Virus record (IMG/VR): IMGVR_UViG_3300045988_151351
Location: 64,001 to 128,000 of that record
DNA: 64,000 nt
Source of the DNA: a virus
Strand: one strand, 5' to 3'
The first letter of the stretch is position 1, and the number at the start of each line of letters is the position of its first letter. Below are positions 9,313 to 63,244 of the stretch, piece by piece. The notes under the pieces were generated by a model, which saw only the letters and a program-made list of their open reading frames with translations, made no database searches and had not been told where the DNA came from. The translations under genes were made by a program, and so were the position numbers.

Positions 9313-9756
9313 ATGGCCACTTTTATTGCTGAACATTTTATTGAAATTATTTTTGGACTTATTTCTGCTGGACTATTAGCATTTTGTAAATCAATTCATG
9401 GTAAAATGAAAAAGTATCAAGCAATGGTTGAAGAGCAGAAAAATGATGACCTAGATGAAAAAATTGAATCCCATATTGAGCCTATTAAAGAAGAAATAGA
9501 AGATTTGCGAAAATATATTAGAGAAGCAAAGACTATTGAAGAAAGTCATATGGAATTAATTATTGCATCTTACCGTTTTAGACTAACTCAATTGTGTCGT
9601 GCTTATTTAAAAAAGGGATATATGACTTCTAATGAGTATGAACAATTAACAGAGTTTTATAAAGTTTATCATGGGTTAGGCGGCAATGGGCAAGCCAAAA
9701 CTTATTATGATAAAACAATAAAATTACCAATTCAGCATGAAGAGCTTCCAAAATAA
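9313..9756 (+). CDS. Hypothetical protein with an N-terminal transmembrane helix (147 aa, no TAG)
   Basis: Track ORF with an AGGAGG RBS upstream. The hydrophobic N-terminus FIAEHFIEIIFGLISAGLLAF is followed by a charged, coiled-coil-like region. Confidence 0.5.
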   Translation: MATFIAEHFIEIIFGLISAGLLAFCKSIHGKMKKYQAMVEEQKNDDLDEKIESHIEPIKEEIEDLRKYIREAKTIEESHMELIIASYRFRLTQLCRAYLKKGYMTSNEYEQLTEFYKVYHGLGGNGQAKTYYDKTIKLPIQHEELPK

Positions 9757-9762
9757 AAATAA

Positions 9763-9800
9763 GGGATAGAACAATTAAGTTCTATCCCTTATTTTTTTAT
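9763..9800. terminator. Bidirectional intrinsic terminator (hairpin plus T-run)
   Basis: aagggatagaac aattaa gttctatccctt is followed by TTTTTTTAT on the + strand and flanked by A/T runs on both sides. It sits between convergent genes. Confidence 0.6.
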
Positions 9801-14031: not shown

Positions 14032-15088
14032 AAATAGTACAAGTCATATCATATCTAGCGCTTGGACTATTATTTAATAAAATTAATTCACAAAATTTTT
14101 GTGATGAAGTACTTGATTCATAACATCTACCAACAGCATAAATTCTCATTGTTCCTCCTGTTTGAGAATAATTTAATAATTCTAAGGTAGATATACCATA
14201 TAGGGTAGTTCTAGAACTATTTTCACAAACACAATATCCTTCAAAACCTTTTGATTTAATCTGTGCTAAAGTTACTCCGGAGGGATCCCCTCCTTTAAAA
14301 GATAACATATGATATGTTCCAGAGTTATAATCTGTATTAACTTTAATTGCAATAGAATAAATAGTAGAAGGTAATGCTCCTCCAAATGAAAAATTCAAAT
14401 ATCCTCCGTTACCATTACCTTCATTATAAAAGCTTGATACAGTTCCAGTATATAATTTAGCACTAGATAAAGTTCCAGTTACTCCAAAAATATTTACTCC
14501 TGATTTAATATTACTAGCAATTAAATTGCTGCTTCCAGATACAGTAATATTTCCAGTAGCATAAGAACCAGAAGCAATAGCAGTCTAAGAACTTGTGCTT
14601 GGAGTAATAGTTCTACCATTAACAGAAGGTATTGTTCCTGTTACTTTTACTCCAGAAGCAGAAGTAAATGTTTTGCCAGTAAGTACATCGGCGGCAGTTG
14701 CATTACCAAAATCTGACTTTGGAAAAACACATCTTGTATGCGCTCCTGCTCTATATAATTTTGGATTATTAAAAGGATATTTAACATAATAATATGTTGA
14801 ATCCTAAGTTCTTAAATAATCAGATAATGAACCAGATTTTTGTTCATATCCTGTTACAATTGGTATTGTACCTGTTATTTTTTCACCATTCACATAGGCT
14901 GTTTTACCTTGTCCAATATCTTCTGCAATGGCAGTTGCATCTGAAGTATCTATGCCTGTTTCAATATTTTGTATCAAATTAGGCATATCTTGAGCATTAA
15001 TTTTATTAGACGTATTAGTTTTTTCTCTAATAGCATCTCCAATTCCTGTTAACAATTCAGGGACTGTACTATAACTCATTATTTCCAT
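14018..15088 (-). CDS. Tail-fibre-like protein (about 356 aa)
   Basis: Track ORFs 14804..15088 and 14018..14398 share a frame and are joined by TAG codons. Gly/Ser/Thr-rich beta-type sequence (GTIPSVNGRTITPSTSS..., NFSFGGALPSTIYSIAIKV...). The start overlaps the upstream gene stop. Confidence 0.45.
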
Positions 15089-16812
15089 TTACCTCCTATC
15101 GCTGTAAATAATTCTATTTCTTTCCATTCATTATTTACTCCATAATATAATTTACATTCTTTCCACTCTTTATCTTTTCCAAAATAAATTTTTTTCTTAA
15201 AAACAGGATATAAATAAAGGTTACTCGGTTCGGTTCTAGTATATGTTGTATTAACTTTATAAGTTACTGTACTACTTCCTTTAGCTGTTGAATATCCTAA
15301 AAATTCACAACCTTCTAAATACTATTCATTTGGATAAATAGTAAAAGTTGCTGAAGAATAACAAGCATTATTAGTATTAGATGACCATTTAGCATATAGC
15401 TAAGTAGCACCATTAGACATAATAAAATTAGTATCTGAAGTTGAATAACTACCTCCTGGAGTAAAATTTACTCCACTTCCTGTATTTGTAGTATTCCAAC
15501 TGGATAAAGTATAAGTAGTTTTAGGTTTATACTAAACATAATTAGTATGCAAAGGAGTAGTATTATCTGACTTATATCTAATTATGGAATAGGTTGTTGT
15601 TTCCGATCCCCATACTGGTGATTTTGTAATAGAAGAAGATGATGGCATAGTAATAGTCTAAGCAATATTGTTATAATATGTTAAAGCATTAGCTGTACCA
15701 CTACCTCCATTAAGATTAAATGATAAAGAAAAATACCAAATTCCATATAAACTTAAAGAATCCTAATCAGTAGATATCGTAGCTCCTTTAGCATATTTAG
15801 GAGTTGTTGCGTTTTTATTAGTACTCCATCCTTTGAATATAAAATTAGTAGGATTGGACCAAGTAGGTGGAGTCATTGTATTTGCTCCTGTATTTGTATA
15901 AGTCCCTAAAAGAGTGCCAGTATTATTATAAAATGACATAGTCCCTTTATAAGGGGTAAATGTTAATGTATAAGGAATATAAGTAGATCCACTACCACTA
16001 AAAGCTAAATTAAGTGCTACATAATAAGTTCGACTACCTAAGAATTTTTCACTATATTTTACTTCACAGTCATATGATACGCTAGGATCCTTATCATCAT
16101 TTTTCTCAGTATCATTATTATCATATACAAAAGATGCATCACGTGATTGCCCTGGAGCTCCTTGACTTGGTTCAGTTTTAGTAATATAGCCATAGGGATC
16201 TGGACTTTTACTTCCAATAGTAGTTGTAAAAGTAAGAGTTCCTCCACAAGGAACTGTTACATTAAAATAAGATGCTCTATAATAATATACTTGTATAGAC
16301 CCACTATAACTTGAAGTATTTTCCGTATTTGTTATTCTTCGATCCGCAGAATAATGATAAGGAGCAATCCAAGAAGTATAAGTATCATTATAATCTCCAT
16401 AAGGTGTATCATAATAATCTCTATAAGGTGTATCATCATAATCTCTATAAGGTGTATCATCATAATCTCTATAAGGTGTATCATTATAATCATTATATGA
16501 AGCAGGTGGATACTAAATATGGTCCTAATCAATGTCACCACCTATACCGTCCTATACAGAAGCTCCATAGGTAGTAGTGGTTGAAAGATTACGTCCTGAG
16601 AATGTAATAGTAACAGAACCAGAATTAGAATAAAATATTAATCCATTACGCCCACTAGTTAGAGAACCGCTAGACGCAGTAAAATTCGTAGTAGCACCTT
16701 GGTTAATTTTTGGATAAATATATATTTGACCACTAGAACAATTTCGCCATGATGCAAGAATTGTAATTGAACTTCCACTAGCTGACTATAAAGATACAGA
16801 AATTGAAGCCAT
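15078..16812 (-). CDS. Tail-fibre / receptor-binding-like protein (about 578 aa) with internal DYDDTPYR tandem repeats
   Basis: An AGGAGG RBS precedes ATG 16812. Continuous hand translation MASISVSL(Q)SASGSSITILASWRN...PYRDYDDTPYRDYDDTPYRDYYDTPYGDYNDTYTSW...TFTTTIGSKSPDPYGY... contains about 12 TAG codons. It ends at TAA 15078-15080. Confidence 0.5.
16385..16480 (-). repeat. In-frame 24-bp tandem repeat (about 4 copies) encoding (D-Y-D/N-D-T-P-Y-R/G)n
   Basis: Visible on the + strand as tctctataaggtgtatcatcataa repeated with minor variants. It lies inside the fibre gene 15078..16812. Confidence 0.7.
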
Positions 16813-16815
16813 ATA

Positions 16816-17778
16816 TTATCCTCCTTCCTTATTTATAGAACTAAAAGCTAAACACCCGCCCTAACAAGATAAATTATTAAATTTTTTACAATTTTTACAT
16901 TTATCATTTTGTCCGTTAGCTTCTCTTTTAGGATAGATTGTTTTAAATAAAAAATAATTTGAAACTTCATTAATATTATCAAACTAATGCAAATCTATTA
17001 AACCATAAGCGCCAAAACAACAAGTTGCTTTAAAATCCGGAGTAATATCTATAACTGGTTTACATAAAGTTTTCCAATGAATTACATTTTTTTTTAAAAA
17101 AGCTAAATCATCTTCTTTAAAATAACAAGCAGGTATCATATTACAATCAATGCGCAATTCAATATTATTTTTATAGGCTAACTAATTTAATTCTAATAAT
17201 TGTGGGATACCATTATTGTAATATTCATCTTTATCTACTTGACTATATTGGCAAGTAGGAGCAGCATAACTAATTCTTAAATTATTTTTTTTATATTTTT
17301 TACATAATTCAATTATATAATTAAAATCCTATAAATCTGGGTATATATTAATACCAAAATTAATTTGATTTAATAGCTAATTTTTTTCAAAATTATTTAA
17401 AGTTTCTATAATACTATTATAATTACTTTCTGACATAGTATTTGGAGCATTCAAATTTATTAAACTAGATAAAGCAGAATGATTTTTAAAACTATTTAAA
17501 TATTTGTCTAAATAAATCCCATTAGAAAAAATAGTAACATTTTTTAAATCATATAATTTATCAAAACAAATATCTATATATTCTGCTAGGCAGGGATGTA
17601 AAGTAGGTTCTCCTCCTATAATACCAATTCTATTACAAGGAGTCTAATCTAAAAAATCTAATATAGTTAATAACTATTCCTTTGTTATAAGCTATTTTTC
17701 TTCCTCTGTAATAAATTTATTAGCAAAACAATATGGACACTATAAATTACAATAATTTAAAAATGCAATATTAGGCAT
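16816..17778 (-). CDS. Radical SAM enzyme with a SPASM/twitch-type C-terminal Cys cluster (about 320 aa, about 8 TAG codons)
   Basis: MPNIAFLNYCNL-TAG-CPYCFANK gives CX3CX2C if TAG encodes Gln. GIIGGEPTLHP is the GGE(P) SAM motif. The C-terminus ...NDKCKNCKKFNNLSC-TAG-GGCLAFS* is SPASM-like. The RBS lies within the upstream gene, which ends TAATATTGC over this ATG. Confidence 0.7.
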
Positions 17779-19045
17779 TATTTATTTTATCTCCTTCTAA
17801 TTTTTTTATTTCTTTTAAATTAAAAAAATTATTTTCTATTAAAATTTGCTTTAAAATAGGATTTATATTATCATATTTTAAATTAATATTTTTAATTAGA
17901 TCGTATAAAATATCATATAATTTTTTATTAAAAATGCAATAATCTTCATTGAAAGATAATTTTCCTGTAGAAAAATATTCTTTTATACATCCACCATAAC
18001 AAATATCATAATAATCACATTTTCCTTTACAATGTGTTAAAATTATATCATCAATTTTATTAATATAATCCTAATAAGTTGGTAAAGATATTAATTCTTC
18101 AAAAGAATTAATATCTCTAATATTACAAAAAATATTTTCTTTATTAACATATCCACAATGAGTAATATCACCATTAGGTAAAATTACTATCCATTTACCA
18201 ACACAATAAGTTGTATAGCATTTCCCTCTACGGCCTAATAGACATTTAATACGATTTGTAATTCCTTGATCTTCAATAGGATTGTCTGTATCATATATCC
18301 AATACCTAAAATATTCTGTAATTAATTCTAAATCTTCTTCATTATCAATATCTATTAGCATATTATTTGAATTACTATCTAATAATTTTATATCTTTAAT
18401 AAAATTCCCCTAAAAGCCATGAACATTTAATGTTTTTAAATATTCATAATTTTCAATTAAATCTTTTAAATGGGGTTTATCATACACACATATAAAACCT
18501 TTATGAGTATTTTTTAAAATAGGTTCCATGGCTAAAGTAGATTGTAGTCCTCTAGTCTCAGTATTATATATACCATTATATGAAAGTCCATATTTTATAT
18601 GATATTTTTCAAGTAATGGTAATTTATCTTCTAATAAAATTCCATTACTTTGTAAAGAAATAGGAAAATTTAAATTATATTTTTGTTTTTGCTCAGATAA
18701 ATATATTAATAAATCTTCTGGCAATAATAAAGGTTCTCCACCATGCCAAGTAATTTCTCGAATATGAGAACCAAATTTAGTAAGAATCTAATCTAATAGT
18801 TCTTTAGTTATAATCTAATCTTTATATTCATATCTAATAAACTAATTTTCACAATAAGGACAATTAGCATTGCATTCATAAGAAGCATGTAATAAAATTA
18901 ATACATTATCTATAGTATGAAATGACATATCATCTACTAACTATAAATCATCTAATTTAGATAATAATTCATTTTTATATTTAACTTTATAGGGCTAAAT
19001 ATGATTATACTTTAACCATAATTTTTTTTCTTCTTCGTATGTCAT
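17771..19045 (-). CDS. Radical SAM / SPASM-domain enzyme (about 424 aa, about 7 TAG codons)
   Basis: Start MTYEEEKK at 19045. Motifs ...LHASYECNANCPYCEN (CX3CX2C), ITWHGGEPLLLP, ...HCGYVNKENIFCNIRD...CKGKCDYYDICYGGCIKEY (auxiliary-cluster cysteines). Track ORFs 18410..18724 and 18071..18361 are in one frame joined by TAG. It ends at TAA 17771. Confidence 0.7.
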
Positions 19046-19285: not shown

Positions 19286-19828
19286 TTAATAACTGTTATT
19301 CACTAAACCATTAACATAAGTATAAACTGCTCTTGCCGTTGGAACTTGACTATCTCCAGAACTTGAATTTATTACTGTGACTACTGGAAATGTAGTTCCT
19401 CCCGAGGATGATGAATCTCCATTATTATTACTAAGAGATAAATAAGGAAAACAAATAAAATTAAAAATATCTCCAATTCTAGTCTTATAATTACTTCCCA
19501 CTAAATTAATTTCAGTTTTATTTGTATTTAAAGTATAATTTTCCATTTTATTTAATAATAAACCATTCTAAAATACTAATAATTGTTTTTCATCAATTAT
19601 TTCTATTGTATTAGGAATGGGAATAGTCTAAGTTATCTCTGATATAATTACTGTTTCATTTATTAAACTTTTATAAAATAATCCTTGAGAAATAGCTGTT
19701 TGTAGATCATAAGTAGAGCCGTTTATATCAATATAAACGGCTCTACCAAGAGTCTACGGGAAAATAGGATTTTTATCATTATCATGCTATTCTGTGGTCT
19801 ATAACAATTTAATATATTCTTCATTCAT
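19286..19828 (-). CDS. Hypothetical structural-module protein (about 180 aa)
   Basis: Track ORF 19286..19546 extends upstream through 4 TAG codons to ATG 19828 (MNEEYIKLL(Q)TTE(Q)HDNDKNPIFP...). Its start overlaps the stop of the giant glycine-rich gene. Confidence 0.4.
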
Positions 19829-22800
19829 TTTGTGTTAGCCACCTTCCATTATAATTAACTTGAAAATCTTTAATTAATTTCCATTCATTATTTATTTTAA
19901 CATAAGTATCTTTAATACGATACCATTCACCATTATCTTTTATATATTCATCAGTTGGGCCATCTAAAACAGTAATAATTATAACTCCATCTCCATAATT
20001 ACCAATTCGTGTATTTAACTAATCTGGCTATAGAATTTTTTCCTAACCAGTTTTAGAAATAGTATCTGATAAATAATAATTTGGTGTTAATAAGCATCCA
20101 GAAGGATAATTAACCGCAGTAGAAGAAGTATAAACATAATTTGAACCGCCTCCACCGCCGCTACCCAATTGGCTTGTATCAGTAGTGTAAGTTCCAGCAC
20201 CGCCATACCAGCCACCACCACCAGCGCCAGAAACAACACCAATTCCAATAGCTCCACTTTTTATAGTTATACCATTTCCACCAAATCCAAAGCCACCATA
20301 ACAGTCTAATTGAGTAGAATAACTATTTGACTAAGTATCTTTTATCCAATTATTATTTACACCAGTTTGATTTCCACCATAACCACCACTAGTAGTACCA
20401 CTATTATATAAAGTAGCATTTAAACCTCCACCAGCACCGCCTTGGTATCCTTTATATCCACCTTCTGAACCGCCACCGCCAGCGACTATTACTCTAGCAT
20501 AAAGAGAATTAGAACCAATTCTTATATCAGTTCCTCCACCACCAGCAGGATAATTTTGACGTTTTCCACCGCCATTGAATCCTCCAGCAATACCAGATCC
20601 TCCTACTCCAAACCATATAGGAGTAGTTTTAGTTAAAGTTAATACGCCAGATGTATAACCACCTCTATTATTTCCAGTACTATTATCGCTATAATAATTT
20701 CCAGAAGCAATTCCACCTTGAGCACCCCAGCATTCTAGTTTATAACGTCCAGGAGGAAATGAAAATGGTCCTATTACTGCGCCATTTGGCGTTTCAAAAT
20801 TGCCCATAAAAGTACTAGTCTAAGGAATAATAATCTATTTTCCCTTTTTAATAACACAATTATAAGGAGATGAAATTACTTTAACTACGATACTTTTTGA
20901 GATATGCGCATAATTGCTATCATTATTATTATTTACAGTAATCGTAGCACGACCAATTTTATTAGCTTGTACAGTAATCCCTCGACCTTGATTATCACCA
21001 GCAATTAAATCTCCTATTGATACTATTGTATTATCATCTGATGCAAATGATAAGTTACTATAATTACCATTATACAATACTGCTAAATTAACAGAATTTT
21101 CAACAACAATATAATGAGGATCCTAAATCTATAAATATGAAGTAGCAGGATTTATCTGCCACTCTATAGTTTTATTGCTAGTTGTTCCATCTGACCATTT
21201 AGTATTTGTAGTATCTATTAAAGAAAGAACCGTTGTATAATTTCCTGCATTAGAAGCTGAAGTTGTTCCACCATTTATTGAATAAAGAATATCATAATCA
21301 GAATTATCATATAATATATCGCTAGCAAAATACCATGTATTTCCATTATATTGAATAGTTGTCTAAGGTTCAGGGATTAACACTGGAGTATATGATAAAT
21401 TCTCATAAGTCATTGTAAAATATGGAATTCGTTTTGTTAAGCCAGAAATCTAAGTCTAATCTGGACTATAACAATACATATATATTAAATCTCCAGCTTT
21501 TAAAGCAACCTCAAAAGATACAGTTCTTTGTTCCTAAGTAATATAATAATACTAAAAATTATTTCCATTTATCTATATACTAAATTGACTCATCCAATAA
21601 GAACCTATATCATCAAGATTTACTTCTGCCCCAAAAGTAAATTTAATTTTTACATTTTTCTTTACTCTGCCTCGATAATAAGCATAAAAACCAGTAAGAG
21701 GAGTTTTATTAGTTTCATATCTAGATGTATTAGAATTATAATAAAAACAATTATCATAATCACTAATATTTTCAACACCTTCATCAACATTTAACTAAGT
21801 AATACGCACATAACCAGTACCATTATGTCCCGTTTCAGATGAACCTGTTGGAGAAGTAAATGAAACATTTCCTCCGATAGTCTAAGCATTTTCAAGATAA
21901 TATTTACTATCTAATAAACATCCAGATGGATAACTAGTAGCAGTTGATGAAGTATATACATAACCGCTACCTCCTCCGCCGCCTTGATTATCAGCTCCAG
22001 TTCCAGAAGAAGGTGGAGAAGTTAAATTGGAAACAGTTAAACCACCATACCAGCCGCCGCCACCGCCACCACCATCATAAGCATGACGTCCTTGACCAAA
22101 ACCTCCTCCTGAAGTTTGACTTCCTCCAGCAGCACCACCAGTACCACCTGATAGTCCTCCGCCATAACCGACTGAATCACCACTATCTTCTCCGCCACCT
22201 CCGCCGCCACCGGCCACAATCACACGAGCATAAAGAGAAGTAGAATTGATACGAATATCAGAAGCACCACCACCGCCACATCCTGGTTCTGAGCTACCAG
22301 ATCCCCAAGCTGATCCACCACCATTATATCCTCCTGAAGACAAAGATCCATATCCAACAGCTCCAATTCCACCACTATAGCAATGTAATGTAGTAGGTCT
22401 TAATAAAGTAAGATTACCATAAGAATACCCTCCTAGTCCTCCAAGACCTGCGGCTGAATTACCATCTTGTTGTCCTCCTCCTCGAGCACCCCAACATTCT
22501 AATTTATATTTACCAGGATTAAATTTTTTGCTATAAGATCCTGAACCGGAAATATTTAAATCATTAGAAACATATCCAATTGATAAAACAGTAATGCGTA
22601 CATAGCCATTACCACTATGACCAGTTTCAGAAGCACCAGTAGGTGAAGTGAATGATGTATTACCAGCAATAGTATTTCCACTTGTTAAATCGTATTCATT
22701 TTGGTATACGTTAAAGCTATAATATCCGCTGCCGCCTGCATTTTGTTCTCGATAAGTACTATCATTATCATTATAGCCAGTCTAGGCACCACCGCCATAC

Positions 22801-23855
22801 CAGCCACCGCCGCCTCCTCCAGCTCCGTATCTATAATTAGTGCCCTAAGTAGTACTTGCTCCTTGACCAAATGCTCCTCCACTACCTGCTTCATATCGAG
22901 TAGAACGATATGTACTATTATTACAATAGCCAGTCGCTCCTCCACCATATTTTAAATCATCATGTAATCCTGCGGCTCCACCACCACCGCCAGCAACAAC
23001 TACTCGCTAATTATAAGAATCTGTTCCAATACGAATATCAGAAGCGCCACCACCACCGCCGCCAGAAGTATAAATATCCTACCACCAACGACGTCCGCCA
23101 GATCCGCCACCATTAAATCCACCAGCATTAGTTCCTCTATCAGTACTGTGAGATGATTGTCCTTGGCCGCCAGCATAACAATATAAAGTAGTATGAGCCT
23201 ACTTTAAAATAGCTATCTAATAACTGTATCCGCCTTTGCCACCATCATAAGTTGGAAAAACACTAAAATTAGCCTAATCATATGACGGAGAACCTCTAGT
23301 AATTGTAACTGCAACACTTTCGCCAGAAACAGAAGCACTGCTATCTTTAGTATAGGTCATCATTACTTCATCATCTACATTTAAATACTTAGAATAAGTA
23401 CCATTATTAGTACCGCTTACAGCACTTACGACTGTAGTTCCACCCACTGTTAAAGTAAATTTATCAAAATTCTATTCTGTTGTATATGAATATACAAACT
23501 AATAATAACCCGCTGTTACACAAGTTAAAATTGTCTGAGCAGTACTACTATCCACAGCTAGATTATTAGCAGACCAAGTTCCATTAGTATCTGGAACAAA
23601 ATGATAACTTGAAATAGCTCTAGAAAAATAAGTAGAAAAATTATTAGAAGTAATATTTGTATTATAATTTATACTACTTGGATTATTGGTACTAGTATAA
23701 CCAGTTCCTCCTTGAGCACCCCAGCATTCAAATTTATACTATCCAGCAGGTAATTGAACAATTTTTTTGTTTCCGCTATAAGGACAATTTAATATGTCTC
23801 CTGCTCTTAAAAGATAATACTTTGGAATCGAAGAAGTTAAATCATATGTTGCCAT
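19821..23855 (-). CDS. Giant glycine-rich fibre-like protein (about 1344 aa) built from three paralogous modules
   Basis: A GGGAG RBS precedes ATG 23855 (MATYDLTSSIPKYYLLRAGDILNCPYSGNKKIVQLPAG(Q)YKFECWGAQGG...). Track ORFs 21882..22343, 20835..21077 and 20331..20807 lie in the same frame. The gap 20808-21881 was checked and holds only TAG stops. The module Y-K-[LF]-E-C-W-G-A-x-G-G ... D-I-R-I-[GN] ... Y-A-R-V-[IV]-V-A-G-G-G-G occurs three times. The gene ends at TGA 19821-19823. Confidence 0.5.
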
Positions 23856-27033: not shown

Positions 27034-27057
27034 AACTTATCTCTTCCTTTCTAAAAA

Positions 27058-27100
27058 AATTAGGGTAGATAGATTTTACCTTCTATCTACCCTAATTTTT
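27058..27100. terminator. Intrinsic terminator hairpin (agggtagatag ... ctatctaccct plus a T-run on both strands)
   Basis: Inverted repeat ttagggtagatagattttaccttctatctaccctaatttttaatt. It follows the 66-aa gene on the minus strand. Confidence 0.5.
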
Positions 27101-27342: not shown

Positions 27343-30300
27343 TTATCTTACAATTGGATCAAAAGTATATTGACAACCACTATTCTAAATATTAGAAATT
27401 ACTTCATTCATTGCTGCCATAACAGAACTTTCAAATTGAGCACGATAATAATATCTAATAGTACCAGTATACTTATTGCCCTTAGTTGGACCAAATGCAG
27501 TAGATTGAGTTAAAGAATTTGGCATACAAGCAAACTAACTTAATGGATATTTATTAGTACCTAACTGAATTAATAAAGCACCAGTTATTGGATATACATT
27601 ATCAACTTTGCTGCCAATAATATGCATACGACCAAAAGAATTACTATTTAAATTAAGTACTCCGTCTTTACATCCTTCTAAAACGAAAGATTTAGTTTTT
27701 CCACCAATTTGTGTTTCCTAAAAAGCATAACTACCAATATATAAACCTTTTAAGGAAGAGGAATAAGGAATACGTTCAACCTAATTTAAATTAGTTTTAT
27801 AGAATGTATAATCACCTATTTTTTCTAAACAATCACTAAATTCAAAATACTATAAATTAGTTGCACCAAAAAATGTTCTACTATCTATTGAAGAAATTTT
27901 ATTACTCAATTTTGGACTAAAATAAATACCAGTAACATTAGTATTCATAATAAAAGCTGTTGCACTTTGACTGCCACTAGTATTTTCAATACGAGTAATA
28001 GATTGTCCATTATAAGTTGATGGTAATGTAATTTTTCCTCCTAAATACTTACACATATCAAAGAAATGTATATAGTAAGTATTATTAGAAGTATCTTTTC
28101 TTATTTCATAATATTGATGATTATCATCATTTTCTAAGATATTATCATAAACATTAACTAATTCTCCAATAGCATAGAAGGTACGATCAGCATATGCTAA
28201 CTGTTTATTTAAATCAATTCTTACGCCATCTGGACTATCAGCAGCCCAGCCTGTTTGTTTCCAAGTTGTTTCAAAAGAAATCAATCCTTGCGCTGGACGT
28301 GTTTCATCCGTATTAAAATCATCTACGCTGTTCTTATAGTAATAGAAATTATTAGGAACGGTGATTCTAGTACCGTATAAATAAGTTCCAGTTACCTTAG
28401 AAATACCATCACCATTCACAAAAGTAATTTCATATGATTTACGCTCAAATCCTGCTGTAAATACATAATCTAATTTATTTGGATTTAATGTTAAAGTATT
28501 CCAATTATTTGAAGTAATCTAATCCTTCTTATTTTCGTCTTTATCAACTGTAATTATGAAATTATTATTTTCATCTTTCCAGCCTTTAAAATCATCAATA
28601 GGACGCTTTTCCTACAAAGTACCAAATGAAATATAATTATTCTTTGTTTTATCTGTAGGATCATCAAAGAAGGTTTGAGAAGAAGAACCATCAGAATTCT
28701 TAATTAACTTCTAAGTTTTTAAGATTTCTTGAGCAATAACATTTCCATCTTCATCTGTTTCTTCAACAATAAATTTTACAGAGTATTCCTTATTAACATT
28801 TTTTACAAAAATTGTTAAATTAGGATAAATGGATTGAAGTTCATTTTGAATAATATGCTCATCAATAGCTTCATTATTTTCAATATATACAATACCTGTA
28901 ATATTAGGATTTTTCTAGTTTATACCTTTAAAAGTATTATCTTTATTGTAAATCTAAGATTCATCATAAATTTTCTTTAGTAAGTCAGTGTAATTTACTA
29001 TTTTACTATGGATTTCTTCGTAGCCATTTACCGTTTCATCAAGGTAGTAAATTAATCCATTCTTAATATCTAACGTAGTAATTTTACTAACTTCATTATA
29101 TGGGATTACATCTAATTGAAAATGTCCGTTATCTTTAAAGTATTGAACATTATCAGGATCTAATTCAATTTTATCATCATTCAATAATCTATATGGACTC
29201 CATTGGACATCAACAAAATTAATTTCACAATCTTTTAAATTACTCTTTTTACATCCAAGATAATAGCGTCTTAATAATTCATAACTATAATATCCAAGAT
29301 TGCCGCCTTCAATATCCATAGTTTTGATTTTAGTTTCAATTTGGTCATCATCTTTATCTGTCAGATTCTAAATATATAATCCTTTATTTTCATCTGCTAC
29401 AACTAATCGTCCTGTCGTCGGATTAAGTGTAGGATTAACATAAGTAGTAATTAATTTATTCAATAAATTTGCTTCAATTAAAGTTAAATAATTAGTTTCA
29501 CTAGTTAAATAAAGCGTATCTAATGCTACGCCTTTTGCAAATTCTACTCTTGGAATATTAGATCCAGTATTTCTAAAGTTTTCTAGCTTTTCACTCTTAG
29601 TTAAATTTAATGCTGGCTAATCTTTCTTAAAAGTAATATTACATAGATTCATTTCTTTTAATAAAGGCATACCAGTTTTAGGATAAGACCAATCATTAAC
29701 ATCTTTATTAAAATAAGCATATGGCTAACCATCTTCGATAGCAAGACCATCATAACCCAATAATAAATCTGTCATTTTATCTGCTTTACCTTCCATAGCA
29801 AATTCTTGGAAATATAATTTACTTAAATCTCCTAAAGATTTCATCTAATCAGTACCATAAATATAATATAACTATTCACGATAATTACCACTAGACATAA
29901 TACCTTTCTTTAAATCAGGAGCTGTAAATTTAACTGGACTTAATCCATTATATTTCTAAGAAGCAAAATTTGCTCCATCAGTACCAACAGTAACATATGA
30001 ATTACGTGCTGGCGACATTTCAATCCAATATTCGCCGTCAAAAATATGATTCTTTTCACCATATTCAATATTATCTTTCCAATATTGAGCATTAGTAACT
30101 AAATTAGTCATACCTTGAGTATTAGTACCTTCAATCCATTTATCAGAAGTATTCTTTGGGTTATTCGCAGAAATACGACTTCTAATAAAATTACCACCAC
30201 TACCACTAGCATAACCATCAACAGTTAACCAAGAATCAATATAGTTAAGACGATTAGATAAAAATTGCGCGCGATATAAGTTACGGTCACCCTATAAAGC

Positions 30301-33300
30301 ATAAAAATATTGGTCAGTTTCTACCGCATATTTGCCTTCATTAGTTAAACGACCAAATATAGTATTTTCAGCGGCTGAATTAGTAGGAATAATATATTTA
30401 TATTCTTCATCTAAATTTAATGCCAATAATGGGCGGTCACCCTTCACAGCATAACTATCAGGGAACACTGAAGGATCAGTTTTATACCATTTATCAACAA
30501 TCGCACTTTTATCACTATTGGTATCAGAGTCTTTAGCAAAAATCTAAGTGACTTTAGATGGAGTATAAGATCCATTACTAAATCCCATTAATTGCTTATA
30601 TTTATCTACAATTTTGCTCTTAAAAAATTGATAAAAATTATTCCACAATACACTATCATTAGTAGAAAAACTTCCATCAATAGTGGCATCAACGTAATAT
30701 TCAAATGATGGAATACCAGTATTATTAATACCTAATTGAGTATCAATATCATAGAAAATTGGATACCAAATATAATGTTGAATTCCAGTCGCTTTTTCGA
30801 TATTATTCTTTTGTGGACCCCACGAAGCAAACATCGCATTTTTACCACGAGAGTCATAACATTCAAAAATTTCAGTCATTAAGAAATAAGTTGCTAAATA
30901 TTCAATATTAAAATAATTACTTAACTCATTCTTAAATTTTGCTTGACGATATTCTTTACAATCTTTAGTATATGTTACTCCACCATAAGTAACAGGAGCC
31001 GGTAATAACCATCTATCATCAATATTAGCTTCATTCTGAATTAACTAATAATAAGATTCATTGGCATTAAATCTATCATTACTAATAGTATAAATATTAT
31101 TTTTTTCATCTTGTAAAATATAGTATATACCAGTCTTATAAACTTTATTTTCATTATTAGTTAAAGTAATTAAATTATAATCTATTCCATTTAATTTATA
31201 ATACTTTATTTCAGAATTAAATTCATCATTAGAAATTCCATATATATCATTACCCGCATCATTAGTTCCGGTAACTACATAATATTTTCCTCTTTCGTAT
31301 AAAGCTTCTGCTAATCCATCTACTAAATTATATTGACCAATAGAAGGAATTTCATATAAAATTCCATCAAAATCAATACTACAATCTAAACAAGTACTCC
31401 AAACCCAACTAACAGCATCCTCCCAGTTAGACATTAATGCTAGTAATAATTCACGAGAGGTATTAGCATTAGTACTATCAAATTTAACAGATTCCTAACC
31501 TGGATTTGTAATAATTATTTCAGTAGATTTTTGACCTGTAGTTTCATCAGTAATTTTATTAACTTGGATTCTGTCTGGAGCTGTATTAGCTATACCATTA
31601 ACCCAGTCAGGTAAATCATCAGCGTAACTACCTGAAGCAGTATCTTTACATTCGAATAAAGCTTTTGAAATTAAATCATCATTAGCATTATATCTAACTT
31701 CAAAAGAATCGGCTACCATTGGAGCACCATGAGTAGTTACCCCATTATTATTATCCATAATTGGAGGTCTAAATGATAACTTATAACGATTCCAAGGATC
31801 GCGGAAAGAACAATAAGTTCTTGAGTTATTCTAGAACTCCCAACATTCAGCAATATCTCTTACTTTTGGTTTTCCTTCAATCTAATTCTATAAAACTTTT
31901 TTATTGGGCTTAAATCCAAAACATTCATCAGAGCCTTTGTCCAATAACATATTATATTTACCAATATATATAATATCACTTTCATTATTATATTGATTAT
32001 TATTATCTGAAGGCCAATGGAAAGCTAAAACAGGGAATCCTTTCATGGAAGTTCTATAGTCATCAGTATTTCCATATAAATCATAGTTATCAAAAGAATC
32101 TTTATAATCACAAATCGGATGCTATGAATAAGTTTCATTAACCAAATTAGCAAAACCTCGGTTATAATCACCAGAAGATTCCATAAAATCTATTTTTAAT
32201 GTAAATTTAGTTGTACCAACTGTCTCATTATCCATATAGAAAAATTCAATAAAGCATTTGCTATTTTTATTTAAAGTATTATTAGTTTTATCTTCTTCAT
32301 ATAATTTTTCAAATGGACCTTTATTCATAAACATTACATTTTTACATTTAGCTTTATAATTACGACGAGGATAATTTCTAGAAGAAGTTCCCTAAACCTA
32401 AAAAGTACATCCATCAATAGTAGTAGTAAAACTAGGACAATGATGCATATAATAATTTTGGACAGGAGTGTAAATAACTTCTTTAGTTACACTATCCAAA
32501 ATCGGAGGCCATTTTACAGGATCTAAATTTACTATATTATCTAGTTCACCACGAGCATAGGCAGCATCCAAAGGTACATTTATAAATTCTAAAGTACCCG
32601 CTTGCGCGCCTTTATCTTTAGAATAAGGCAATCTATTCTAAGTATTTTCATTATTATTAGCAGTAGTTCGCAAAATAATATATGGCATCAAAGGCTCATC
32701 TTGATGAGCGCTATTATAAGCTTTCATTCGCTGATAAGAAAAAACTTCATCTTGAATATCAGCTCGAGATTCATATAAATCTTTCTAATCCCAATACTTA
32801 ATATTTTTTTTATCAAAAGCATAATTCTATACAACTTCATGAATAGATAAATCTGTGTCATATACTCTAATACTATACAAATCAATATCACAAGTATTAG
32901 ACATAAATTTAATTACATCAGAATTAATACTCCACATTGAAGAACTACTACGACGAGCAACGCTAGTTAAAACACCATTCATAAAAATTTCTAATAACTT
33001 AGAGTTGCCACCAACCATGCCCTCTTTTGCCTTTGTATAAACAAAAGTTAAATTTAACATCTTATCTTCAACAAAATCAACAGATACAGTTTCTTCTTTA
33101 CCATTTGCAGTAAATGTAGCGTCCTATGGACTAAAATAAATACCCAATGGATCTTCTTCTGAGCCATAAGCGCAAATTAAATTATTTTTTAAATCAAAAA
33201 TCTACTCTAATCTATCATAAGTTAATTCATCATAAGTTGGAGCTTCTGGATGTTTAGGTAAATATTCCTAAGTTAAGAAAGTATCATAATTTAAATATGT

Positions 33301-35118
33301 ACTCTGATTTCGGAATTCTTTCCAAGCATCATCATCAGTCCAATCCTATTTAGAAGAATCTGCTTCATCACTGGCTTTATAACGAGTATATTTAGTAATA
33401 ACCTTAGTATAATTCTAAGGATTTCTAATTTTAAATTGAATTTCAATAGTATGCGTAGAGGTAGCACTACCATTATCAAACTCCAATGAACCAATAGGAA
33501 TAGAAATTTCAGCACCATTACTAATTCTTAAACAAGTTACATTATTTTCATCAAATAGCCAACCATTATTATACCAGTTAAAATTCTTAAACGTTGCACG
33601 CTTACCATTAATTTCAAGAGTTTCTCTGCTTAATTTACTTTCTGAATTTGAACGTCCAGTAGCAACAAAATTAACTTTTAAATCACTTTCACGCGCTAAC
33701 TTCATATCACGTAATGGATCAACTGAAATATCAAAAGTAAAATTACGAGAATAATCATACGGTTCTGTACCAACTTTAATAGTATAATAAGCGCTATCAT
33801 TTACAGCAAGATTAGTAATTTCCCAATATTCCCATTCAGCATTATTAGAAGTAATTTGTCTTGTACCAATTAATACACCATTTTTATATAAATAGACTGT
33901 GGCAATTTGATTATTTGGATCTAATACTTTAAAAGGAATTCTAATTGTTTCATAAGTATAGTATTCTGTTTTAAAATTACCAGTCCAAATTAAAGGAATT
34001 AAGCTCGTTCTATCTCTAATAGCAATTTCTTTAGTAATAAATGGCGTTCCATTACCTTTTATTCCATTCTAAGATAAATATAATTTTGCTTTAATAGTAT
34101 GTTCTCCATGAGTAAAAACATCTTTTAAAGTAGTCGCTTTAGTTGAATTTAAAATAACTGTATCAGCAGTAATAGTAAAATCATCATTAGCTTGATTAAT
34201 GTTATCTCCTTTATATTCTCTATTCAAAACTAGATAATCATCAAAATATACTTCTATGGTACGTTCTACTCCACTTGACATTAACCATGCTGTTCTCACT
34301 GAACCATCATCAAAAGGATAAATATTAGAAAAATTATCTTCCTTCCAAGATAAATCCAAAGCATGTTTTGTAATAAATACAGTACGCTTAGTTGGCGCTA
34401 AAAATTTATTATTTTCAGGGTCTGGATTGTTAGTAATATCAAAAGTAATTTGATGAGTAGTTGAATCTCTTAATACTTCTGTTAAATCAAATGTTTGAGC
34501 AACATTATGATTGAATACAACTCTATCACTTTGCCAAATTACTTCATATCCTTCACCAGATTTATTTTGCTAACTAACTGTTATTTGACCTTCTACAGAC
34601 TCTGCTTGCGGCACGTTATCTATAGTACGGCACTTAACTAAAACAGTCACACTAGCCTATTCATTATTTAAAATATCTTGTGTACAATTTAAAGTTAAAG
34701 AAGTAGAACCTAGTACTTTTTTTTCAGAGCTTTCGTCACTTCCTCCACCCATTGTTAATTTTTCACATTTTGCACATTCTTCTCGATCTTCATTTAATCC
34801 AGTTCCTATAATGCGATAAAAGCATCCATCTGAATTTAAAATTAAATCATTTATATGATAATTTGTTGTCGATAACTTACCAATCTCAATTAAATAATCA
34901 ATAGGATTCTCATCTATATCATATTCAATTTCTGCGTTATCATCAGTACCATATATTACCTATACGCCACTAGAACCAATGGGTAATTTATTCTCGTCGG
35001 CAGTATCTAAATAAATGCGGCCAGTATCAGTGGCAACATAAAAATATCCTTCAGTCTAAGGAAAATTTTTAATCTTTTCTTCTAGGCCTTGTACTGGACG
35101 GAAATGAATTTTAGACAT
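27343..35118 (-). CDS. Giant virion-associated protein (about 2591 aa) with C-terminal BspA-type leucine-rich repeats
   Basis: An AAGGAG RBS precedes ATG 35118 (MSKIHFRPVQGLEEKIKNFPQTEGYFYVATDTGRIYLDTADENK...). Every minus-strand track ORF from 27850 to 34359 (ten ORFs) is in the same frame. Each gap from 27343 to 35118 was checked codon by codon and holds only TAG (more than 50 of them), never TAA or TGA. The C-terminus (...YFEFSDCLEKIGDYTFYKTNLN(Q)VERIPYSSSLKGLYIGSYAF(Q)ETQIGGKTKSFVLEGCKD...) is LRR-like. The gene ends at TAA 27343-27345. Confidence 0.5.
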
Positions 35119-35238
35119 ATTTTACTCCTTTCTATCCTATAAAAAAATTATGGGGAAAGAAGAACACCTTCTTTCCCCATAAAAACATTCTTCTATATAA
35201 GAAGAAAAAATTATAAGCAAAATTAATTTATATTGGCC

Positions 35239-60345: not shown

Positions 60346-60879
60346 TTAACCCAATTTCTCAACAACGTTCTTCAATAAAGTAAGATTCTCTGGATCAGCT
60401 AATTTCTTTTGAATTTCAGTAGCATCAAGATTCAAATTACTATAATCACGTCCAATAGAATCAAGAATACCAAGCGCGGAATTGCGATAAGTATAAATCG
60501 CGGTTGCCAATTCATGAGTCACTTTTGTTAAATAATAAAATTCGCTTTCAGGAACTAAGCCAATAATTAAGTTAAGTAATTTATTACTACTTAATAAATC
60601 ATATAACTTCATTGGGTCTGACTTTTGCTTTTCTGTAAAACTAATATTAGAATAAGCATAGACAATCTCTAAAGCAAGCCACATATCTAATTTAAGATTA
60701 TTATAATATCCAGCATCATCATCAACTGAATTATTTAATACTCTTGAAATTAATTCTGCTTTTTCCGCAATTGGAAGATATTGCTTTACTTCAACTGTCT
60801 GATCATTAAATTCTACAGTTTGAAATTCATCTAATTTGTCTTTAGTTAAACCTAATTTTGAAAATGCTATCTTTGCCAT
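60346..60879 (-). CDS. Tail assembly chaperone-like protein (177 aa, no TAG), immediately upstream of the TMP gene
   Basis: Track ORF MAKIAFSKLGLTKDKLDEFQTVEFNDQTVEVKQYLPIAEKAELISRVL... Its position relative to the TMP gene and its size fit a gpG-like chaperone. Confidence 0.4.
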   Translation of the reverse strand: MAKIAFSKLGLTKDKLDEFQTVEFNDQTVEVKQYLPIAEKAELISRVLNNSVDDDAGYYNNLKLDMWLALEIVYAYSNISFTEKQKSDPMKLYDLLSSNKLLNLIIGLVPESEFYYLTKVTHELATAIYTYRNSALGILDSIGRDYSNLNLDATEIQKKLADPENLTLLKNVVEKLG

Positions 60880-62062: not shown

Positions 62063-63244
62063 TTACTTGTTTTCTTTATCAAGTTTAGATAAAAGTTCAT
62101 CTAGTTCGTTCTTTTCTTCAACTACTGTTGTTTCTTTCGGAACTTCTTTGATTACCCTTTTTTCTGCTTTCTTAATTACTTCAGGTTTCTTTTCAGCACT
62201 GGGTTCAGACTTTACAACCCAATGTTTACCTTTAATAATCATAAATTAATCAGTGAAACGAGCGTTGTGACTGGCATCATGAACAGTCTGAGTTCTATGA
62301 ATGTCACTAGCGCCGCCTTCCTCAATAATCTGAATAGCAGCAAGGACTTTCTTACTGTGGTCGAAACGAGTATAATCAGGGAATGCGTCCATAGTAAATG
62401 TGAAAGTAGAAGGATCGCCAGAAGAAGCCATTGTGAAAGTAAAGTTAGACTGAATCTTGCAGTTAGGAATTATAAATTCAGCAGGCATATCAACACCATT
62501 TTGATCACGGAATAAGGTAGAAGCTTCAAGATAATAGTTACCACCGAATTTATCAGCAGTAATTTCAATCTGTTGAGCACCACTAGCTTTTTCAGTATAA
62601 TAATCAACAATAGCACTATCATATGCTGCAGCTGCTGGAAGACCATTATGTTCATCAAAAGTATAATCACCTGTACCAGCAACATAATCATCATGTGGAG
62701 TTTTAACAACTAAATCAAAATATTCATTGCCATTAGTATCCTTTTTAGCAGTTAACTCCTCATGGACAGGAATAAAAGGTTCAGAAATAATTTCGCCATC
62801 TTTGACAAACATAACATAAGCGAAATTCTCTTGATTACCAGTTGGAAGATAAGGCTTTTTAGAAACACGAATAGTAACTTGTCCTTCAGTAGTTGTACTA
62901 TCAATTTGTGCCTTATCTACAGTTTCAGTGATATGCTGTTTAATAGTACTATCAGCACTTGCTTCAATTAAACCGGCACCAGAAAGAATCATAAAACCTT
63001 CTGGAGAAATAAGAGCATCTTCCATTGTGAAAGTAACAGTTCTTTCACCTTCCCAAGCTACTAAACGAGCATTACCACGGCCACCTTGAGCATATACAGT
63101 GGTAGCTGCGCCTTCCATGCTAGAAGTCTTTAATGTATCGAAATAGATAACTGGTTCATTCTTATAGAAGATTTTATTACCGATCTTTTGAGCTGCTTTA
63201 GCCTTCAAAACAACATCGCAAATCTCACGAACACCAAATTTCAT
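62063..63244 (-). CDS. Major structural protein (about 393 aa; major tail tube/sheath or other abundant virion protein) with a Lys-rich C-terminal extension after a single TAG
   Basis: Track ORF 62246..63244 (332 aa, AAGGAGG RBS, MKFGVREICDVVLKAKAAQKIGNKIFYKNEPVIYFDTLK...) has no internal TAG. Its TAG at 62246 is followed in frame by FMIIKGKHWVVKSEPSAEKKPEVIKKAEKRVIKEVPKETTVVEEKNELDELLSKLDKENK* (TAA 62063). It is bracketed by terminators and sits two genes upstream of the chaperone/TMP. Confidence 0.5.

Follow-up and report, generated by a model that had tools for sequence, protein, structure and literature searches.

Within a 64,000-nucleotide (nt) stretch of phage DNA (IMG/VR virus record IMGVR_UViG_3300045988_151351, positions 64,001 to 128,000; hereafter the window), the minus strand carries a single long frame from an ATG at 35118-35116 to a TAA at 27345-27343, with 2,591 sense codons and no TAA or TGA, which we read as one giant gene for a predicted ~297-kDa protein. 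A first-pass annotation, made from the sequence by itself, had reported this frame at 27343-35118 with the length and coordinates that our re-reading returned, and a search for an overlooked in-frame TAA or TGA found none in the 2,591 codons. The frame holds 39 TAG codons, fewer than the >50 previously counted, and the standard code (code 11) therefore splits the span into 40 pieces, where about ten had been listed. The nearest in-frame stop 5' of the ATG is a TAA at 35124, and the start is preceded by a Shine-Dalgarno (SD) sequence (Table 1), as is the case for most genes of the window. The two other frames of the same strand contain 121 and 443 TAA or TGA codons over the same span and, using the lower of these two rates, the chance of a 2,591-codon open frame is ~1e-54. 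The predicted product has a mass of 296.6 kDa and an isoelectric point of 4.8; no transmembrane segment was predicted and no strongly hydrophobic segment is present, so that a membrane anchor would be lacking.

TAG behaves as a sense codon, most likely glutamine, throughout the window (code 15), as the first-pass annotation had proposed. Reading the window under code 15 more than doubled the coverage by open reading frames (ORFs) of at least 100 codons, from 31 kb under code 11 to 68 kb. In-frame TAG codons occur in 30 of the 34 called genes of at least 140 amino acids (aa), and all called genes terminate in TAA or TGA, with none ending in TAG. Codon exchange among homologues points to the identity of the inserted residue. 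In a homologue with 87% identity (P0002, from locus L001; sample ERZ18707888), the 39 TAG positions are occupied by TAG (25), CAA/CAG (10), TAT (2), AAG (1) and AGT (1), and the 34%-identical homologue P0037, which has only five TAG codons of its own, most commonly uses CAA/CAG at the aligned positions (7 of 33). The glutamine of a QGTSS motif (Q909) is shared by 87 of the 88 family members and is encoded by TAG in the window, P0002 and P0049, by CAG in P0037 and the standard-code P0084, and by CAA in P0064. With TAG counted, the glutamine content comes to 3.6%, a normal level.

Four genes of the window are free of TAG (263-2668 and 9313-9756 on the plus strand; 60346-60879 and 62246-63244 on the minus strand), namely a YorL-like DNA polymerase, two small genes and a 332-aa virion structural protein (phrog_2729). 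Under a model in which recoding is a property of late genes, a structural gene without TAG in a heavily recoded tail module would be odd.

Among 5.8 billion proteins searched, 88 homologue clusters were recovered, nearly all of 2,100-2,960 aa, including one that is 99% identical and likewise 2,591 aa long (P0001). These clusters are colinear with the giant protein from its N-terminus through its leucine-rich repeats (LRR), and their alignments cross every TAG unbroken. One relative, P0084, is a single 2,246-aa ORF on a GC-rich, standard-code phage contig. No internal SD sequence with an in-frame ATG, the pairing that would split the frame, was found within it; only two weak TTG sites were detected, 40 and 83 codons from the preceding TAG. 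That TAG is a genuine stop, and the span a set of short genes or pseudogene fragments sharing a frame by accident, would accord with the 40 standard-code pieces and with the failure to find a suppressor tRNA in the window. We nevertheless regard this explanation as extremely improbable, given the ~1e-54 chance of such a frame, the unbroken alignments over each TAG, the exchange of TAG with CAA/CAG (including at the QGTSS glutamine), the lack of an SD sequence and ATG after any TAG, the single ORF of the standard-code relative and the lack of any window gene ending in TAG. The unbroken alignments, the TAG/glutamine exchange and the missing internal starts led us to reject the related suggestion of several genes in one frame, which the first-pass annotation had left standing beside its preferred single protein of ~290 kDa. 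The 7.8-kb interval had no blastn match among 50,697 phage records.

Table 1. Features of the giant gene, its predicted product and the adjoining tail module. Positions are those of the window; CDS, coding sequence; HSPs, high-scoring segment pairs.
Feature	Residues or length	Position (nt)	Strand	Remarks
Single CDS	2,591 codons + TAA	27343..35118	minus	39 TAG read as Gln (code 15); from frame, full-length homologues and TAG/CAA/CAG exchange
Shine-Dalgarno AAAGGAG		35125..35131	minus	6 nt 5' of the ATG; read from sequence
N-terminal domain	aa 1-125	34744..35118	minus	separate HSPs in P0056-P0083
Beta-rich modules	aa 126-880	32479..34743	minus	weak Ig match, start of PHROG region
CotH-kinase-fold domain (predicted), N-lobe	aa 881-1110	31789..32478	minus	invariant columns, homologue Pfam matches, fold match
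VQGTSSxxYPRRNYK	aa 908-922			N-lobe; Q909 is a TAG codon
FTLKIDFMESSG	aa 972-983			N-lobe motif
Variable insertion	aa 1111-1370 (260 aa)	31009..31788	minus	gaps at aa 1110-1370 in P0048-P0088
CotH-kinase-fold domain (predicted), C-lobe	aa 1371-1660	30139..31008	minus	
DSRGKN	aa 1422-1427	30838-30855		C-lobe; invariant
YPIFYDIDTQLG (YPIFYDxDTQLG)	aa 1452-1463	30730-30765		C-lobe
Conserved modules between core and LRR	aa 1661-2330	28129..30138	minus	homologue identity
BspA-type LRR module + 61-aa tail	aa 2331-2530 + 61 aa	27346..28128	minus	LRR_5, structure matches, divergence
Conserved small gene	66 aa	27131..27331	minus	own GGAG; starts 11 nt after the stop of the giant gene
Hairpin + T-run (TTAGGGTAGATAG...CTATCTACCCTAATTTTTTT)		27053..27095	minus	after the 66-aa gene; read by eye from sequence
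Virion structural protein	332 aa	62246-63244	minus	phrog_2729; first in tail-module transcription order
PhageMin_Tail protein	3,110 aa	50884-60216	minus	domain typical of tape-measure proteins; 91 in-frame TAG
Fibre-like protein	1,632 aa	45522-50420	minus	C-terminal Peptidase_S74 chaperone domain; next after the tape-measure gene
Tail-module protein	959 aa		minus	between the 1,632-aa and 771-aa genes
Tail protein	771 aa	40185-42500	minus	tail-protein PHROG match
Three genes	115, 703 and 561 aa		minus	between the 771-aa gene and the giant gene

Domain layout and family of the giant protein

The most conserved part of the giant protein, which had gone unnoticed in the first-pass annotation, is a core at aa 881-1660 (96-98% identity in P0002, ~50% in members whose overall identity is 34%). 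In the family, this core is modelled as a CotH-kinase fold, with two lobes separated by an insertion (Table 1) that is absent or far shorter in distant members, and which has the lowest conservation within the core and low model confidence. Five residues of the C-lobe motifs (D1422, K1426, N1427, D1457 and D1459) do not vary across an alignment of 51 sequences, although its columns average only 18% identity. On the region equivalent to the core, the Pfam CotH profile (PF08757; cut-off 23.8 bits) matched the homologues P0084 (38.1 bits), P0068 (25.0) and P0087 (24.9), in the last case across profile positions 1-221. An AlphaFold2 (AF2) model of the core of P0050, a homologue with a short insertion, reached a mean predicted local distance difference test (pLDDT) score of 70.9 and a predicted template-modelling score (pTM) of 0.75, and its best structural match was CotH of Bacillus cereus (5jda/5jd9; Foldseek E 3.9e-6, probability 1.00, TM 0.56), the next match lying at E ~0.9-1. 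Searched against BFVD, the same model matched gp353 of Bacillus phage G, together with virome proteins annotated as 'CotH kinase', 'spore coat protein H kinase fold' or 'internalin-like'. Some homologues, both close and distant (P0003, P0005, P0009, P0023, P0026-P0028, P0030 and P0035), carry a further insertion of ~95-130 aa in the N-lobe, at the position of aa 1008-1019 of the window protein, in which it is absent.

The C-terminal end consists of BspA-type LRR, as the first-pass annotation had recognized. Pfam LRR_5 (PF13306; cut-off 27.7 bits) matched aa 2403-2469 at 29.5 bits, and at 32.0 bits when the C-terminal fragment was searched, and the family profile matched solved BspA-type LRR structures (4fs7, 2e-35; 4gt6, 5e-35; also PcpA 4cp6 and TpLRR 6mlx). 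Identity to P0002 falls to 49% in the LRR and 34% in the last 61 aa, compared to 93-98% in the remainder. The C-terminus is thus the fastest-evolving part of the protein and the core the most conserved, a gradient from which the LRR end is inferred to be the host-binding end.

Outside the core and the LRR, similarities are fainter. The N-terminal 125 aa are 32-41% identical in P0056-P0083, members that have elsewhere diverged to ~25%, and by analogy this segment may anchor the giant protein to the tail or baseplate. The modules that follow are beta-rich; of the domains proposed for checking at first pass, LRR_5/BspA was found, as above, and an Ig-like domain appeared solely as a weak, sub-cut-off match to Big_7 (bacterial Ig; aa 389-447, E 0.14). 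PHROG families without an assigned function, phrog_14959 (5e-50 over aa 646-1070) and phrog_24896, also matched, and the family profile had a weak match to the N-terminal domain of chitinase A. Between the core and the LRR, aa 1661-2040 are conserved (41-55% identity in members 34-46% identical overall) and aa 2041-2330 less so, with no Pfam match over aa 1661-2330. Inspection by eye suggested Listeria-Bacteroides (Flg_new) repeats at aa 2140-2330 and a LamG-like domain at aa 470-870; Pfam found neither in the giant protein, and both assignments were dropped. The homologue P0031 carries PF09479. A phmmer search of the whole giant protein against the PDB returned nothing meaningful.

To place the core in a wider family, its profile was searched against 1.84 billion 50%-identity representatives, yielding 4,588 clusters at E <=1e-3 and 1,500 at E <=1e-30. 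Nearly all of the best 150 matches measured 2,000-2,900 aa and carried the domain at approximately aa 800-1500. Some members of the family end in a C-type lectin with a diversity-generating retroelement (DGR), in DUF6273 or in Lcl_C, replacing the LRR or beside it. Among deposited phage genomes, only distant relatives were recovered (NatCom_3357, Hankyphage p00 and Bacillus phage G gp353).

Gene neighbourhood, phage and probable host

The window has a GC (guanine plus cytosine) content of ~30% and strong SD sites, and encodes a DnaE-type DNA polymerase with 38% identity to YorL of SPbeta, NrdD, two radical-SAM proteins and a long minus-strand tail module. The source appears to be a gut-type, SPbeta-like, TAG-recoded phage of roughly 190 kb, and its host is probably a Firmicute. 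The first-pass annotation had left the host between Bacteroidota and Firmicutes; the strong SD sites and the YorL-like polymerase make a Firmicute the likelier. It had also taken giant LRR-ended virion proteins as typical of jumbo or mega-phages, but the giant protein is not specific to these, as relatives occur in phages of 42-48 kb (Hankyphage, NatCom_3357). The longest contigs with close homologues measure 193-196 kb, just below the 200-kb jumbo threshold, and that of the distant P0049 229 kb, all of these being contigs and possibly partial genomes.

The giant gene is part of the tail module and follows the 3,110-aa gene at a distance of six genes (Table 1), and the same gene order surrounds its homologues in loci L001-L004. 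The product of the 3,110-aa gene is probably the tape-measure protein and, at the usual ratio of 1.5 Angstrom of tail length per residue, would mean an unusually long tail of ~450 nm. Long coiled-coil-like stretches and hydrophobic segments were also observed in this protein. The fibre-like protein encoded next could extend to 1,754 aa with an earlier start, its open frame reaching 50786, and its Peptidase_S74 end (SDKRLKTNI) is as in endosialidase-type tail fibres or spikes. Together with the giant protein, it gives this phage at least two very large fibre-like proteins.

Directly after the giant gene, an ORF of 65-72 aa is present in all four recoded relatives (L001 17750-17950, L002 17986-18195, L003 17189-17386 and L004 16406-16624), corresponding to the conserved 66-aa gene of the window. 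These small ORFs share the motif LYxYxGTNGTIxSPVxL; no Pfam family was found for the 66-aa protein, and the small ORF that follows the Hankyphage target gene has no similarity to it. The 66-aa protein may be an assembly or chaperone partner of the giant protein, and the hairpin and T-run beyond it look like an intrinsic terminator closing a unit of the two genes.

Further observations concern the remainder of the window. A gene at 19821-23855 on the minus strand encodes a 1,344-aa glycine-rich protein with three copies of a module bearing the motifs 'YKFECWGAQGG' and 'GGGGGASDIRI', which matches PHROGs without an assigned function (1589, 7388 and 5811); this gene explains why the GC content climbs locally, to 39.5% at 22-24 kb. 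The two radical-SAM genes (16816-19045, minus strand) lie within the late/structural block, adjoining genes for a 577-aa repeat protein (15079-16812) and a 356-aa protein, and their products may modify a structural protein or peptide. Plus-strand genes of replication and nucleotide metabolism meet the minus-strand block convergently at approximately 9756-9789, where the GC skew changes sign, the cumulative skew being greatest near 10 kb.

Proposed role on the tail tip and competing explanations

We consider it reasonably probable that the span is one late gene of a code-15, SPbeta-like phage of ~190 kb, probably infecting a Firmicute, and that its 2,591-aa product sits at the tail tip or baseplate periphery and serves as an adhesin. 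The conserved N-terminal 125 aa would dock the protein on the tail and the LRR end would bind a host-surface ligand, which would make the protein an adhesin or receptor-binding protein. Since its translation would need the TAG suppression of the phage, its synthesis would be confined to late infection. Retention of the catalytic-loop-like D-x3-K-N and D-x-D motifs in the CotH-like domain is proposed to reflect continued nucleotide binding or phosphate transfer. The gene lies in the tail module downstream of the tape-measure and baseplate-like genes, a placement shared by the loci of its relatives and by two deposited phages, and its product combines a conserved N-terminus with a variable, exchangeable C-terminal domain, as in receptor-binding proteins. 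Of the two functions guessed at first pass, host adhesion is therefore the better, supported by the tail-module position, the fast-evolving LRR and relatives that occupy a receptor-binding-protein slot or are diversified by a DGR; for the other, an ejected protein, we found no positive evidence.

That second guess has a more specific form, in which an internal virion protein is delivered with the DNA, its CotH-type kinase phosphorylates host proteins (in takeover, sporulation or division control) and its LRR binds an intracellular target. The strong conservation of the kinase-fold core, higher than that of any other part, the invariance of its catalytic-loop-like motifs and the availability of ATP only inside the cell would all suit such a role, and manipulation of host signalling has been suggested for CotH-like DGR targets (Roux et al., bioRxiv 10.1101/2020.04.01.020958). 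However, the genes around it, downstream of the tape measure, are those of tail and fibre proteins rather than of a head or ejection module, the hypervariable C-terminus and the DGR of relatives follow a pattern of surface-ligand recognition, and a 297-kDa protein of many beta-rich modules seems an unlikely passenger of the tail channel. We therefore hold delivery into the cell to be improbable.

In oral and gut bacteria, proteins with BspA-type LRR bind ligands on host tissue, and in fungi CotH proteins serve as invasins and not as kinases. Both precedents would fit a virion-surface adhesin for mucus glycans or other gut surfaces, or else a large structural part of the baseplate with a dead CotH-like fold. 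Adherence to mucus has been proposed for the Hankyphage target (Benler et al., PMC6199706). The strict invariance of D-x3-K-N and D-x-D, at a mean column identity of 18%, argues against a dead fold, whilst the tail-tip position of the gene and the separate LRR gene of NatCom_3357 fit host recognition, and we view these explanations, too, as rather unlikely.

Several results weigh against the proposed tail-tip adhesin or against parts of it. ARAGORN detected no tRNA, and hence no suppressor tRNA, in the 64-kb window, approximately one third of the genome, or in the 26-28 kb loci of five relatives, so that the decoding machinery was unobserved. BLAST and per-domain hidden Markov models (HMMs) revealed no paralogous N-terminus or other paralogous domain in neighbouring genes of the window, and the idea of a shared fibre-docking N-terminus was dropped. 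Pfam CotH did not match the window protein itself even at E <=1, and when the window-type core, 260-aa insertion included, was modelled with AF2, the pLDDT was a poor 53 and the best match was 5jd9 at E 0.11; the fold assignment therefore rests on homologues. Sequence searches of the PDB with the core profile (A2) and with the core fragment of P0084 returned no CotH, hence the link needed the homologue Pfam matches and the fold search. In Bacillus subtilis CotH, D228 and D251, 23 residues apart, are essential (PMC7821199); in the family, D-x-D follows D-x3-K-N after ~22-37 residues, a spacing that, counted along the sequence, would be compatible with that Asp pair. Moreover, ATP is scarce outside the cell and a kinase would have no obvious job there, and the domain may therefore be a non-catalytic binding or structural module.

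A more speculative extension of the tail-tip adhesin is that its core is an active phosphotransferase, modifying a component of the host envelope or one of the phage's own tail proteins during adsorption or the triggering of ejection. We know of no phosphotransferase-type enzymatic activity on phage tails, and regard this as possible but doubtful. If true, a tail-tip phosphotransferase would have been kept across thousands of giant gut-phage tail proteins and aimed by LRR, C-type lectin/DGR or other C-terminal modules.

Standard-code annotation breaks the largest and most informative genes of such phages, here into 40 fragments in place of one 297-kDa protein, and reading the gene intact ties a recoded SPbeta-like phage to a very large core family. 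As the core is constant and the binding end variable across that family, the core probably performs a step common to many gut-phage infections. Learning what the CotH-type fold does on the tail, and which ligand the LRR binds, would aid host prediction and host-range engineering for phages of gut Firmicutes.

Comparison with known systems

The best deposited match is a 1,673-aa hypothetical protein of NatCom_3357 (Ca. Heliusvirales, PV036416), with 26% identity over aa 337-1880. This homologue is shorter, uses the standard code and occupies the receptor-binding-protein slot of a siphovirus, after the tape-measure protein, Dit and an 800-aa Tal-like gene and before the holin and endolysin. Whereas the LRR is fused to the giant protein in our window, in NatCom_3357 LRR_5 (E 4.9e-29) is encoded by a separate 179-aa gene directly after (L007 13173-13712), an arrangement which suggests that a detachable subunit is one form that the LRR end can take.

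Hankyphage (Bacteroides phage p00, BK010646) encodes a 2,245-aa DGR target that is likewise giant (~2,000-2,300 aa) and in a tail position, just after 'baseplate hub' and 'minor tail protein', and that shares with the giant protein a comparably placed CotH-like core and a ligand-binding domain at the C-terminal end. It corresponds to DGR target category f1 (Wu et al. 2018) and PC_00012 (Roux et al.). The homology of the cores is very distant (tblastn 3e-10; 6e-12 with P0084; ~25% identity over ~250 aa), and the C-terminus is a DGR-diversified C-type lectin rather than a BspA-type LRR. Hankyphage is, moreover, a 43-kb, standard-code, Mu-like Bacteroides phage, unlike the TAG-recoded, low-GC phage of ~190 kb examined here. 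In our window, no direct repeat of at least 60 nt that could form a pair of variable and template repeats (VR/TR) was found, and no reverse transcriptase was seen. The locus of P0084 (L005, on a contig of 56% GC) appears from its sequence to be Hankyphage-like: the 3' end of the giant gene (16557-16680) has a copy 350 nt downstream (16907-17030), 16 of the 17 mismatches fall at template adenines, a DGR signature, and a reverse transcriptase gene adjoins. A 2025 study (PMC12135933) called the Hankyphage target a tail fibre and showed its DGR to be active, and tail proteins were found by mass spectrometry in Hankyphage particle preparations (supplementary S6 of that study), their accessions being unmatched to the giant ORF. 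Similar proteins have been recorded elsewhere as DGR targets of ~2,000 aa in which motifs of CotH and of Laminin_G_3 were noted (Wu et al. 2018) and as a 2,284-aa viral DGR target with a CotH-like kinase (Roux et al.), and the CotH-family kinase domains of phages were said to be 'currently unstudied' (Benler et al. 2021).

The central domain of the giant protein resembles Bacillus CotH (5jd9/5jda; PF08757) in fold, by way of the homologue P0050, at a sequence identity of only ~11%. CotH of Bacillus is a spore-coat enzyme of ~42 kDa, whereas here the domain carries a 260-aa insertion and lies inside a 297-kDa putative tail protein. The C-terminal repeats match BspA-type LRR surface proteins, both in LRR_5 and in the structures listed above, but end a phage protein rather than a secreted bacterial one.

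It is established that large gut phages can recode TAG (Borges et al., bioRxiv 10.1101/2021.08.26.457843; Peters et al., PMC9523058). The window shares with the recoded crAss-like, Lak, Jade, Sapphire and Agate phages the use of in-frame TAG as glutamine, which in those phages is concentrated in structural genes, and also some replication genes without TAG. In size alone, its ~190-kb genome is close to the Sapphire (201 +/- 22 kb) and the Jade (210 +/- 35 kb) genomes. Unlike in those clades, nearly all genes here hold TAG, including NrdD, and those without it include the DNA polymerase and one virion structural gene.

Overall, there are precedents for TAG recoding, for giant tail proteins of phages and for phage proteins resembling CotH. 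The family is very large, yet earlier papers mention such proteins in passing and the Hankyphage DGR target is its only discussed member. New here is a form of the family that ends in LRR, lacks a DGR and is TAG-recoded, in what appears to be an SPbeta-like phage of ~190 kb.

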